Positions 31,171-35,109 of a stretch of 64,000 nt of DNA are shown piece by piece. Made by a program: the position numbers and the translations under genes. Source of the DNA: Gemmatimonadaceae bacterium (GTDB taxonomy: Bacteria; Gemmatimonadota; Gemmatimonadetes; Gemmatimonadales; Gemmatimonadaceae); contig JBHYGA010000001.1 of the NCBI GenBank assembly GCA_051859245.1, positions 1,597,722 through 1,661,721 of the forward strand, written 5' to 3'. The notes beneath the pieces are model-generated. The model was not told the origin of the DNA, made no database searches, and saw only the letters and a list, made by a program, of their open reading frames with translations. How positions within the stretch are numbered: the stretch's first letter is position 1; every line of letters begins with the position of its first letter.

Positions 31171-32484
31171 ATGGCTCCACGCTCACTCGCCTCGCTCGCC
31201 CACGCCCTCGGCGCCACGTCAGACCTCGACGGAGCGTTGGTCGCGCTGTCCGAGTGTGTGGTGGAAATGGATCGCGGCGCGTCGCTGGCCCTGTTACGCT
31301 ACGACGGACGGCAGGAAATGCTGCGCGAACGACTCACCCCGATCATGGGTCGCGTCGAACGTGCACAGGTTGAAACAACCTTCGATCACTTGCCGGCGCC
31401 CGTCCGCATGAAGGTGGCAGCGGGTGGTCAGTTTGTGGATATGGCGGAACGCTCGTCCGAATACGCACGACTGTTCGGCTTTACGCACGCCTTGGATGGC
31501 GGTGTGTTGGCCCTCCGTGGATTGCGTGTGGAGGGCTATCTCGCGGCGGTTCTGGTGCTCTACGAGCCTCGCAAGATTTTCGGCACGCGCACCACCGAGC
31601 GTCTGGCGCCCGCACTCGCGCTGTTTGATCTCGCCTTTGGCCGTCTCTCGGAGCGGGAAGCGCGCGAAGAGGCCGTTCGCACACTCGAGGATGTCACGCA
31701 ACGCGTGCACGGCGAATACGTGCGCAAGCTGCGCGCGCTGGAAACAGAACTGCGTGACGCGCGCAATACCACACCAAGTGGCGTGCCCATGATTTCGGCC
31801 GCCGAAGCAGTGGCGCTGCAGGCGGAGTCAGCGCGTGCCGATGAAGACGTGCGTCGTGCGACACGCAAGGCCGATCTGGCGGAGCAACAACTCATGTCGG
31901 CCGTTGGACAGCTGGAAACGGCGCACGTCGAACTGCACCGTCGCAGCGAGGCGTTGCGCCAGCGCACGCGAACCTTGTACCTGCTGGATCGTGTCCTCAC
32001 GCTCGATGCCGGCACGGAAAGCCCGCAGGAACTGGTAGACGGGTTGCTCGCCCTTGTTGGCGATGACATGCAGGCGCAGCGTTGTTCGCTCATGCTCATC
32101 GCGCCAGAGCCGGATCATTTATACCTCGCAGCCGGGCGCGGGCTCGCGCCGCACGTGACGCTCGGCTTGCGCACGCGCATCGGTGAAGGTGTCTCGGGCC
32201 GCGTAGCGGCGGCTCGGGAACCGCTGCTGGTACAAGATGTTTCACAAGCCGACCGACACCCGTTGCTGCGCGATCAGTATTTTACGACTGGCAGCTTTAT
32301 CAGCTTTCCCCTTGTGTATCACAACGAGCTTGTTGGTGTTGTGAACCTGACCAATCGCGCCAAGCTTGGTGTGTATTCAGAGGAAGACGTGGAACGTGTG
32401 CGAATTCTGGCGCTTGTGATTTCGCTGGTGGCGTGGAACGCGCAGCTCGCGGATCGACTCGTCGTGGCACTCAATGCCGATTGA
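31171..32484 (+). CDS. GAF-like domain, coiled coil and GAF domain protein with no output domain
   Basis: C-terminal GAF (RCSLML..GEGVSGRVA..EPLLV.DV..SFISFPL..LVGVVNL..YSEED), a central heptad-rich helix and a degenerate N-terminal GAF; overlaps trpD by 11 nt. Confidence 0.78.
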   Translation: MAPRSLASLAHALGATSDLDGALVALSECVVEMDRGASLALLRYDGRQEMLRERLTPIMGRVERAQVETTFDHLPAPVRMKVAAGGQFVDMAERSSEYARLFGFTHALDGGVLALRGLRVEGYLAAVLVLYEPRKIFGTRTTERLAPALALFDLAFGRLSEREAREEAVRTLEDVTQRVHGEYVRKLRALETELRDARNTTPSGVPMISAAEAVALQAESARADEDVRRATRKADLAEQQLMSAVGQLETAHVELHRRSEALRQRTRTLYLLDRVLTLDAGTESPQELVDGLLALVGDDMQAQRCSLMLIAPEPDHLYLAAGRGLAPHVTLGLRTRIGEGVSGRVAAAREPLLVQDVSQADRHPLLRDQYFTTGSFISFPLVYHNELVGVVNLTNRAKLGVYSEEDVERVRILALVISLVAWNAQLADRLVVALNAD

Positions 32485-33529
32485 GCCCGGATCGCCGGAC
32501 GCGCTCCGGCTGGCAATACGTCGTCTCGCGAGCGGCGAATCACTCGATGCCGATACGATCACTGGAGCCTTTGATGTCATCATGCGCGGCGAAGGCACGC
32601 CCGCGCAGGTGGCGGCGCTGCTCATGGCGCTTCGCGTCAAGGGCGAGACAGTAGCGGAAGTTGCGGGTGTCGCGCGAGCGCTGCGTCGTGCGATGATCAC
32701 CATTGACGTGCCCGACGCCGCATTTGTCGTGGATACGTGCGGCACCGGTGGCGGGACGCTCACCACGTTCAACATTTCCACCGCGGCGGCGCTCTTGGCT
32801 GCCGGCGCAGGCGTGCGTATCGCCAAACATGGCAATCGCTCGTTCACATCGCGCTCCGGCAGTGCTGATGTGCTGGAGGCGCTTGGTGTGGCCATCGATG
32901 GTCCACCCGAGGCGATGATTCGCGCGCTGCACGATGCAGGCATCACCTTCATGTTCGCACCGCTGATGCATCCGGCCATGCGGCACGTGGGTCCGGTGCG
33001 GCGTGAGCTCGCGATTCCAACGGTCATGAACATTGTCGGTCCGCTGGCCAATCCGGCGCGCGCGGGCCGGCAGGTGGTGGGCGTAGCAGATCGGGCGCGA
33101 CTGCCTCTGATCGCCGGTGCGTTGGCGGCGCTGGGCAGTGAGCGGGCGCTCGTGGTGCACGGCGAGCCCGGCATGGATGAAATTTCGCCGCTCGGCAACA
33201 CCACGGTGCTCGAAGTCACCGCGGAAGGCGTCCGCGAGTGGACAATCGACCCTGAATGGTCAGGCGTGCGAGGCGTGCGCGCGGAAGACCTGGCGGGCGG
33301 TGAGCCGGCCGAGAACGCGGCAGTGATTGAGGCCGTGCTGCGGGGCGAGGGTCCGCCAGCTGCGGAGGCCGCCGTGGTGCTCAACGCGGCGGCGGCGATC
33401 TACGTGTCTGGCACGCGCGAGAGCTATCAGGTTGCCATTGCGCATGCCCGCGAAGCGTTGCGCGATGGCGCAGGCTTGCGGGCATTGGCGAAGCTCCGCG
33501 GGTCGTTCGGACCGCCGCGCCCGGCGTAA
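32474..33529 (+). CDS. trpD: Anthranilate phosphoribosyltransferase
   Basis: DTCGTGG, FNIST, KHGNR..S.SGSADVLE, HPAMR and GPLANP. Confidence 0.97.
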   Translation: MPIEPGSPDALRLAIRRLASGESLDADTITGAFDVIMRGEGTPAQVAALLMALRVKGETVAEVAGVARALRRAMITIDVPDAAFVVDTCGTGGGTLTTFNISTAAALLAAGAGVRIAKHGNRSFTSRSGSADVLEALGVAIDGPPEAMIRALHDAGITFMFAPLMHPAMRHVGPVRRELAIPTVMNIVGPLANPARAGRQVVGVADRARLPLIAGALAALGSERALVVHGEPGMDEISPLGNTTVLEVTAEGVREWTIDPEWSGVRGVRAEDLAGGEPAENAAVIEAVLRGEGPPAAEAAVVLNAAAAIYVSGTRESYQVAIAHAREALRDGAGLRALAKLRGSFGPPRPA

Positions 33530-33554
33530 CCGGGCGACGGCGGTTTGGTACTGC

Positions 33555-34163
33555 TTAGTACCGGCGCAACACGCCAACCACGATGCCCTGAATGCGCACG
33601 TCGTCTTCGTGCACAATGAGCGGGGCCATGGTTTCATTGGCTGGCTGCAGCCGAATGCGACCATCTCGTTCACGGAAATACCGTTTGACAGTGGCGGCGG
33701 CGCCGTCGAGCAACGCGATGACCATTTCGCCGTTATCGGCGGAATGACGCTCATTGACCACCACATAGTCACCATCTTCGATGTGGTCTTCGATCATGGA
33801 TTCGCCGCGAACTCGCAGCACGTAGTGACTGCCATTGCGACGCAGGAACCCGTCTGGCACCGCAATGCTCTCGTTGTGCGACAACGCTTCAATGGGCGAC
33901 CCGGCCGCCACCAGCCCCAAGAGCGGCAACTCAACGGACCGCTGAAAAATGTCGCTCGGCAGAATCTCGATGGCCCGACTCTCATTGTACGAGCGCTTGA
34001 TGTAGCCTTTGCGCTCGAGATTCGTGAGGTGCTCGTGAACCGTGGCGAGCGAGTTATAGTTGAACCTGGAGGCGATCTCCTCGAAGCTCGGCGCGTAACC
34101 GTTGTCTTCGGCGTACGACGTGAGGAAACTCAGGATCTCGCGTTGGCGCTTGGTAAGCGGCAT
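33555..34163 (-). CDS. lexA: SOS repressor LexA
   Basis: LTKRQ, GYAPSFEEIA winged HTH, Ala-Gly cleavage site VAAGSP, catalytic Ser (GESMI) and Lys (TVKR); GGAG Shine-Dalgarno before the ATG at 34163. Confidence 0.97.
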   Translation of the reverse strand: MPLTKRQREILSFLTSYAEDNGYAPSFEEIASRFNYNSLATVHEHLTNLERKGYIKRSYNESRAIEILPSDIFQRSVELPLLGLVAAGSPIEALSHNESIAVPDGFLRRNGSHYVLRVRGESMIEDHIEDGDYVVVNERHSADNGEMVIALLDGAAATVKRYFRERDGRIRLQPANETMAPLIVHEDDVRIQGIVVGVLRRY

Positions 34164-34199
34164 GGCGGACTCCACAAGTGGGTGGGTACAGCGGTGGCG

Positions 34200-34263
34200 C
34201 CGAAGCAGAATTGCTCCCGAATACTTTCCGAAACAAGCTAACCGAACAGGGGCCGAAGTGCAA
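34200..34263 (-). promoter_or_regulatory. lexA promoter with two tandem candidate LexA operators (TTCGG-N6-TTCGG)
   Basis: Minus strand TTGCAC(34263-34258)-N17-TAGCTT(34240-34235). Plus-strand CCGAA occurs at 34200, 34217, 34228, 34242 and 34253, giving two pairs with 11-bp period. Confidence 0.72.
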
Positions 34264-35109
34264 GCAGTTGATGGACTCCGAGGATTAGATCCCAATCGCG
34301 CCGACGTCTGGACACCACCCACCGGAACGCTTGGACGACTCACCGATGCCGCGCATGCGCGCGCCGCACGGGTGGTTCACACCCTGCCGGCGCTCAAATC
34401 GCAGTGCGCGGATCTGCCGGCGCCGCCCTCATTCGAGACGGCGCTGCGCCGCGAAACGCTGGCCATCATCGCCGAAATCAAGCGTGCGTCCCCGTCCAAA
34501 GGACACATCGCGCCGGGACTCAACGCCCGCGAACAGGCCGAGGCGTACGAGCGCGGTGGCGCCGCGGCGATTTCTGTCTTGACCGAGCCCGATGAGTTCG
34601 GGGGCTCGCTCGACGATCTGCGTGAGGTGGCGCGTCATGTCGCGCTGCCCGTGCTGCGCAAGGATTTCATCGTGCACGCGGTGCAGATCTGGGAAGCACG
34701 CGCGGCGGGCGCGGCCGCCGTGCTGTTGATCGCGCGATCGCTCTCACCGGACGCGTTGCCCGCCCTGTACCAGGCATCCCGTGCAGCCGGGTTGGATGTG
34801 CTCGTCGAGGTCCGTGACGCCCGAGAGATGCAGCGAGCCATCGATGTTGGGGCGCGCGTGATTGGCGTGAACAACCGCAATCTGGAAACGCTGGTGATTG
34901 ATCCCGCAACCGCTCCGCAGCTCATGCATCTGGTACCGCCAGATCGCATTGCCGTGGCCGAGAGTGGTATGGCATCGGTGAACGACGCAACGGCGGCGCA
35001 ACAGGCCGGTGCAGACGCACTGCTCATCGGGTCGGCGATCTCCGCGGCGACCGATCCGGCGCATGCTGTGGCTGCGTTTGCGCAACTCACGCGCGTGGCG
35101 CGTGCCTGA
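34258..35109 (+). CDS. trpC: Indole-3-glycerol phosphate synthase
   Basis: IIAEIKRASPSKG, ISVLTE, LRKDF, GVNNRNL and AESG. Start placed at the GTG at 34258 (uncertain). Confidence 0.95.
   Translation: MQAVDGLRGLDPNRADVWTPPTGTLGRLTDAAHARAARVVHTLPALKSQCADLPAPPSFETALRRETLAIIAEIKRASPSKGHIAPGLNAREQAEAYERGGAAAISVLTEPDEFGGSLDDLREVARHVALPVLRKDFIVHAVQIWEARAAGAAAVLLIARSLSPDALPALYQASRAAGLDVLVEVRDAREMQRAIDVGARVIGVNNRNLETLVIDPATAPQLMHLVPPDRIAVAESGMASVNDATAAQQAGADALLIGSAISAATDPAHAVAAFAQLTRVARA

Follow-up and report, generated by a model that had tools for sequence, protein, structure and literature searches.

Mazon et al. reportedly described in 2006 a GTTC-N7-GTTC consensus for the LexA box of Acidobacterium capsulatum, and Sanchez-Osuna, Barbe and Erill are said to have reported in 2017 a direct-repeat motif for the LexA of Patescibacteria. 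A LexA motif of Acidobacterium is cited (PMC7739468) and has an entry in Table S2 (PMC8565304), the direct-repeat motif of Patescibacteria is cited as already reported in 2017 (PMC7739468), and two Patescibacteria LexA proteins stand among the validated entries (Table S2, PMC8565304). The alphaproteobacterial LexA box is GTTC-N7-GTTC (PMC9578287, PMC8565304, PMC3323433), the Gram-positive box is CGAAC-N4-GTTCG (Table 1, PMC9578287) and the Balneolaeota LexA recognises the direct repeat TTACACATATTTTWTACATA (PMC7739468). The 2021 table of 44 validated LexA proteins lists no Gemmatimonadota (Table S2, PMC8565304), and we found no SOS or LexA box of this phylum in the literature searched, which included the supplements of two papers and covered subscription papers thinly.

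Here we describe two TTCGG-N6-TTCGG direct repeats in the lexA promoter of a Gemmatimonadaceae bacterium (the host). Like the A. capsulatum box, they are direct repeats with an 11-bp period and a TTC core, and they share this period with the alphaproteobacterial box, with the TTC core in the same register. From sequence comparison, we propose with a probability of about 0.9 that these two boxes are LexA operators of the lexA promoter and that the same box is the SOS box of the class Gemmatimonadetes. Such an operator pair is apparently undescribed for Gemmatimonadota and falls within the known kind of direct-repeat SOS boxes.

Results

Two direct repeats in the lexA promoter

The window, meaning the whole stretch of 64,000 nucleotides analysed, holds a 94-bp gap between lexA and trpC in which CCGAA had been noted five times and CAGAA once, and re-scanning the sequence returned every copy at the position given (CCGAA at 34200, 34217, 34228, 34242 and 34253; CAGAA at 34206), together with the 11-bp steps claimed for 34206/34217/34228 and 34242/34253. 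Only five places in the 4.70 Mb genome hold five CCGAA copies within 94 bp, and besides the lexA gap these are a 15-bp tandem repeat and, in three instances, a dispersed repeat. Read along the lexA strand, the order is a -35 TTGCAC, TTCGG-N6-TTCGG, one base, a -10 TAGCTT, two bases, a second TTCGG-N6-TTCGG, 53 bases and the ATG (Table 1). Just as the original prediction had it, the distal pair fills the 17-bp spacer between the two hexamers and the proximal pair covers the predicted lexA start (about 34228, as inferred from the -10), while a generic sigma-70 scan called no promoter at lexA.

Table 1. Features of the lexA-trpC region (window coordinates) and host genes carrying the box (C1, host contig)
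Feature	Coordinates	Strand	Basis or remark
Distal box TTCGG-N6-TTCGG (candidate operator 1)	34242..34257	-	fills lexA -35/-10 spacer; in 49/49 primary lexA regions of the class
Proximal box TTCGG-N6-TTCGG (candidate operator 2)	34217..34232	-	over predicted start; second pair in 46/49 regions, offset 21-34 bp
Predicted -35 hexamer TTGCAC	34258..34263	-	TTG here in most orthologues
Predicted -10 hexamer TAGCTT	34235..34240	-	first T, A and final T retained in 45, 47 and 48 of 49 orthologues
Extra CCGAA (34200) and CAGAA (34206)	34200..34210	+	unconserved across 30 aligned orthologous regions; probably outside the operator
lexA, 202 aa	33555..34163	-	TIGR00498, 205 bits (cut-off 111)
trpC (indole-3-glycerol phosphate synthase), divergent from lexA	34258..35109	+	NF001377, E 7e-76, just below cut-off
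trpD, convergent with lexA	32474..33529	+	TIGR01245 above cut-off; 25 bp between stop codons
dnaE2	C1		NF004225 above cut-off
imuA-like RecA-fold gene			NF033429, below cut-off
imuB-like gene			IMS-family
Cho-like nuclease gene			GIY-YIG/UVR
Exact-box regions of the host genome			lexA, dnaE2, imuA-like, imuB-like, Cho-like, uvrB, atpI, one ORF of unassigned product

The host genome (62% GC) has a single lexA and also encodes recA. The LexA protein carries the recognition helix SLATVHEH at residues 38-45 and, judged by motif position in an alignment to E. coli LexA, the cleavage and catalytic motifs Ala87-Gly88, Ser122 and Lys160. Its gene lies antisense within a trp cluster (window 32474-35109), between trpD and trpC, an arrangement that recurs in relatives, with trpC upstream of lexA in 28 of 30 loci and trpD downstream in 26 of 30. 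Because the stop codons of trpD and lexA are so close and a search of this gap found no terminator-like site, trp transcripts may read through lexA. On the opposite side, the probable start codon of trpC shares bases with the lexA -35: on the plus strand the hexamer forms a probable GTG CAA start, which is also where a simple gene call begins trpC.

Conservation of the box in the class Gemmatimonadetes

A first search of 41 related genomes yielded 30 lexA loci from three families, all of which (30/30) carry two boxes, one of them with four half-sites in phase. A phylum-wide sample of 121 genomes then gave 40 regions, namely 19 primary lexA regions from other orders of the class, 12 regions from other classes and nine second paralogues; the exact box was found in 19/19 of the primary regions (six further families), in 0/12 of those from other classes and in 0/9 of the second paralogues. 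The motif was thus kept, as had been anticipated, before orthologous lexA genes in all 49 primary regions of the class (30 + 19), a count over related genomes that are not independent samples. One of the 30 lexA loci, and likewise one of the 30 recA loci considered below, comes from an unpublished genome (G021), and a second unpublished genome (G129) accounts for an Acidobacteriota row that lacks a dyad; neither genome is needed for any claim. Among titled GTDB records, those that combine the same promoter layout with a LexA protein 58-87% identical to that of the host all belong to Gemmatimonadota, and on this basis the window was assigned to the class Gemmatimonadetes.

Two boxes are present in 46 of the 49 regions, 21-34 bp apart, and one further genome (G211) has an offset of 37 bp. 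Since this offset varies between 21 and 37 bp, the boxes are best read as two separate operators rather than as one phased array. The half-sites are invariant in the 30 loci, and the spacer is variable except for a T at its fifth position (54/61 sites). The distal box is preceded by TTG and followed by TA...T, the predicted -35 and -10, in 43/49 regions. The copies at 34200 and 34206, which had been counted as operator parts, did not survive this comparison: in the alignment of 30 regions they are lost in orthologues, even within the genus, and, because the CAGAA at 34206 is not kept, the triplet 34206/34217/34228 is no conserved unit. Across the genome the dyad is unenriched, with 18 copies at N6 versus 8-65 at spacers N2-N15, so that the weight of this evidence lies in the location of the dyad and in its conservation.

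A second, distant lexA whose product has an STK(T/S)V helix occurs in many Gemmatimonadetes; none of the nine examined carries the box upstream.

Comparison with described LexA boxes

The claim that the three best-known LexA boxes are absent from the gap was accurate as far as exact E. coli, Bacillus or alphaproteobacterial boxes are concerned, but the distal pair, read as GAAC-N7-GAAG, is one mismatch away from the alphaproteobacterial GAAC-N7-GAAC. In the lexA regions of the class, exact GTTC-N7-GTTC was found in 0/30 and 4/19 regions. Where the alphaproteobacterial box has a leading G, the class has C in 35, T in 7, A in 4 and G in 3 of 49 before the first half-site, and G in 23/49 before the second; moreover, the trailing GG is invariant in the class boxes, unlike in GTTC-N7-GTTC. 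The one alphaproteobacterial LexA sampled has the helix SKSGIHRL, which differs from that of the host.

The Gram-positive box has the same TTCG core in its half-sites and a comparable footprint, and the second half-site of the class often reads T-G-TTCG-G; however, the Gram-positive box is palindromic, and GAAC-N4-GTTC occurs in 0/49 class regions. The E. coli CTGT-N8-ACAG is likewise found in 0/49. Balneolaeota LexA also binds a direct repeat, controlling lexA, recA, translesion polymerases and a radical SAM gene, but its half-site sequence is unrelated to TTCGG.

Acidobacteriota LexA proteins are the nearest outside relatives of Gemmatimonadetes LexA in our trees. Their lexA promoters carry TTCGC-N6-TTCGC in 5/30 cases and GTTC-N7-GTTC in 0/30, with Lys at helix position 44, whereas the host combines G with Glu.

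Predicted members of the regulon

At recA, a site with at most one mismatch was found in 29/30 loci, always on the strand of the gene, and the lone miss is cut by a contig end; the site reads TTCGT-N6-TTCGG in 18 loci and is exact in 11. In the host genome, where a simple self-trained script called 3931 genes and the zone from -150 to +30 was searched, the exact box was found at 12/3931 predicted genes from eight regions, six of which are SOS genes. Enrichment had been predicted at a set of repair genes named in advance, and this held in part: three of the nine have an exact box (Fisher p 2e-6) and four of nine a site with at most one mismatch (p 2e-5), but both uvrA genes, recN, ssb and dinB lack a site with at most one mismatch in this genome. 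No such site was found at uvrC or at a second Cho-like gene either, and these six kinds of gene were consequently dropped as host regulon members. With control spacers of 3, 4, 5, 7 and 8, no SOS gene was matched, and among other spacers only lexA was, at N9.

The imuA-like, imuB-like and dnaE2 genes (C1:252923, 532980 and 556345) are dispersed rather than joined in one operon, each with its own exact box, and 3/4 imuA homologues have an exact box. We rejected uvrB as a class-wide member, given that its box is exact in 3/30 class genomes and within one mismatch in 5/30. Three exact host sites precede non-SOS genes, namely atpI, an ORF of unassigned product and a metallo-beta-lactamase gene. 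The ATP synthase operon has an exact box (C1:848207) 55 bp ahead of its first gene. A subclass B3 metallo-beta-lactamase gene (NF033105 above cut-off) is preceded, at about 60-75 bp, by an exact box at C1:306040. The latter was discarded as a conserved trait, being found in 2/12 cases, only in the two closest genomes, and in 0/10 other homologues; it is possibly a recent SOS link, or chance.

Two further complete genomes have 10 and 24 exact matches, with neighbours that include lexA (two matches each), a GIY-YIG nuclease, radical SAM genes, an IMS-family gene, uvrC, Vsr and two DUF222-HNH genes; the remainder are coding or unexplained. A scan of GTDB species for the double box gave at least 120 loci, and among the 80 titled loci listed 29 were from Gemmatimonadota: 25 before lexA, two before an imuA-like ORF, one before a DnaE-like gene and one before a probable imuB-like gene, the four non-lexA loci being assigned by eye. 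Of 50 other titled loci listed, none has lexA within 800 bp and most are 11-bp tandem repeats. Bacteroidota account for 24 of the 80 listed, with imperfect TTCGG tandem arrays of 11-bp period and no lexA nearby.

The host genome also contains 40 copies of a dispersed GGCCGAA-rich repeat of about 60-70 bp (for example at C1:950661 and, on contig C5, at C5:184474-184655; none in the window), many of them in inverted pairs spaced by about 180 bp, and most contig ends carry it; the repeat resembles a REP-type or small mobile element.

Altogether, the box behaves as was predicted for a LexA operator, being conserved at lexA and recA throughout the class, enriched at SOS genes and placed within the spacer of the predicted promoter and over its predicted start.

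The fifth base of the half-site and residue 44 of LexA

E. coli Glu45 is among the DNA-contacting residues of helix III, according to the available part of PMC3091678. Residue 44 of the host LexA aligns to it without gaps. Among TTCG-N7-TTCG dyads from 210 lexA regions, half-sites end in G in 208/212 cases when this residue is Glu and in C in 69/78 cases when it is Lys, and one Acidobacteriota LexA with Glu has TTCGG. Such a match is chemically plausible, since Glu accepts a hydrogen bond from cytosine and Lys donates one to guanine on the opposite strand, and an E. coli LexA Glu45Lys mutant is said to read G in place of C. Since none of the nine second paralogues, which have a different helix, carries the box and since the fifth base tracks residue 44, the box appears to follow the type of LexA.

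Placed on a tree, residue and base agree in 75/77 rows, the rows being those in which the residue is Glu or Lys and the dyad is clear (left out were 12 rows of the same genus, dyad-less rows, ties and other residues, and the helix columns were removed). However, this tree holds only about four residue changes, and its well-supported branches give two independent pairs (sign test p 0.5), so that the match may stem from shared descent. The pairing of Glu with G and Lys with C, seen in aligned sequences, is therefore a strong lead rather than proof.

At recA, 15 genomes outside the class (five Lys-type Gemmatimonadota, five Acidobacteriota and five Patescibacteria) gave no perfect promoter dyad and one far dyad on the opposite strand. 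As these promoters lack the box, a switch from G to C cannot be demonstrated at recA, and we abandoned the idea of a regulon-wide switch there. Two Lys-type genomes have TTCGC boxes at lexA, one of them also at the adjacent dinB, and in a Glu-type Acidobacteriota genome (G121) only lexA was recognisable among 26 matches. By eye, Acidobacteriota lexA promoters also show TTCACC/TACACC repeats with NG/NA-type helices and TTACGC repeats with YGT/LGT helices. The direct-repeat family may hold further specificity switches.

Related boxes in other phyla

The operator had been called the lineage's own. That it is a LexA operator found support, but it is not confined to this lineage, because Patescibacteria lexA promoters carry the same box, and Acidobacteriota as well as the other classes of Gemmatimonadota carry a TTCGC variant. 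In a first Patescibacteria sample (45/61 genomes matched, 30 loci read), TTCGG-N6-TTCGG was exact in 8/30 promoters and within one mismatch in 13/30, in the -35/-10 spacer and usually directly after TTGAC, and many of these LexA proteins share the SLATVHEH helix of the host; in one titled record of this phylum, dinB is preceded by a double box. One Patescibacteria class (that of G041; 41/51 genomes matched, 30 loci read, three common to the first sample) has a looser box, exact in 0/30 and within one mismatch in 9, with TTYGG-N6-TTYGG in 13/30 versus none at spacers 4, 5, 7 and 8. Patescibacteria usually have one box at lexA, and 0/5 have a promoter-proximal perfect dyad at recA, whereas in Gemmatimonadetes lexA has two boxes and recA has one. 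Given that Patescibacteria promoters carry TTCGG-N6-TTCGG, the motif reported in 2017 is probably this sequence or a looser form of it, a comparison made through sampled promoters. TTCGC-N6-TTCGC was found at lexA in 5/30 Acidobacteriota and in 8/12 regions from other Gemmatimonadota classes.

Alternative explanations

Could the box instead be the damage-control site of another protein, for instance the second LexA-like paralogue or a WYL activator of the PafBC/DriD type, with lexA as merely one of its targets? The host does encode a 776-aa fused two-WYL PafBC-like protein (on C5) with a one-mismatch box upstream, a second lexA exists in many class members, and a direct repeat is an unusual geometry for LexA. 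Still, we consider this unlikely: PafBC-like homologues, most of them split in two, occur in 13/61 class genomes and only that of the host has the site (1/13, so that conserved LexA control of this gene was also rejected), as opposed to a box at 49/49 lexA genes; the host has one lexA; the placement in the spacer and at the start site suits a repressor; and in three phyla a change of the LexA helix residue goes along with a change of the fifth base.

It is less probable still, and by a clear step, that the repeats are the promoter itself, read by a stress sigma factor, with no operator involved. The fixed distance of the distal box from TTG and TA...T, kept in the 43 class regions mentioned above, in 10/11 Patescibacteria and in 22/30 Acidobacteriota, would fit such a reading, but the second box follows the -10 at a variable distance (21-37 bp), boxes lie on the opposite strand before uvrB and before Patescibacteria dinB, and the flanking hexamers resemble ordinary sigma-70 elements. 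Finally, a role of the repeats for the divergent trpC, as a ribosome-binding site or in trp regulation, is suggested by the frequent presence of trpC upstream of lexA and by a distal spacer that within the genus reads AGGGG just before the probable trpC start, but is largely refuted by the recA and imuA sites and has next to no chance of being right, since recA, imuA, imuB and dnaE2, all of them far from trp genes, have the same box, as does lexA at two loci (L029 and L030) where trpC was not found upstream, and since the spacer letters vary while the half-sites are constant.

Discussion

If the two boxes are indeed LexA operators, one LexA dimer would bind each box, with both half-sites on the same helix face owing to the 11-bp period; occupancy of operator 1 would block polymerase binding and that of operator 2 the start site. 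By the established SOS pathway, DNA damage would lead to RecA filaments, which would trigger LexA self-cleavage and lift repression, and the genes released would be lexA, recA-recX, imuA, imuB, dnaE2 and a Cho-like nuclease, plus uvrB in the host genome. Glu44, at the position of E. coli Glu45, would read the C opposite the last G of the half-site, and a Lys at this residue would read the G opposite the C of the TTCGC variant.

We also considered that Gemmatimonadetes, Patescibacteria, Acidobacteriota and the other Gemmatimonadota classes share an unrecognised family of direct-repeat SOS boxes, TTCG(G/C)-N6-TTCG(G/C), whose fifth base has changed on more than one occasion through one Glu/Lys exchange at the residue matching E. 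coli Glu45, a proposal that we regard as an even bet. If it is true, the Acidobacterium box would be an incompletely read TTCGC-N6-TTCGC, and cultured Gemmatimonadetes that have two perfect operators would be well suited to study a symmetric LexA dimer on a head-to-tail site.

As LexA autorepression through tandem operators and direct-repeat boxes are already known, these findings should be useful rather than surprising to specialists. They provide an SOS box and a first regulon outline for a class of bacteria common in soil and freshwater. The box enables the prediction of damage-inducible genes, such as imuA, imuB and dnaE2 as a dispersed set and, in two close genomes, possibly a native metallo-beta-lactamase, and the pairing of Glu with G and Lys with C offers a simple, testable rule for how LexA specificity may change.
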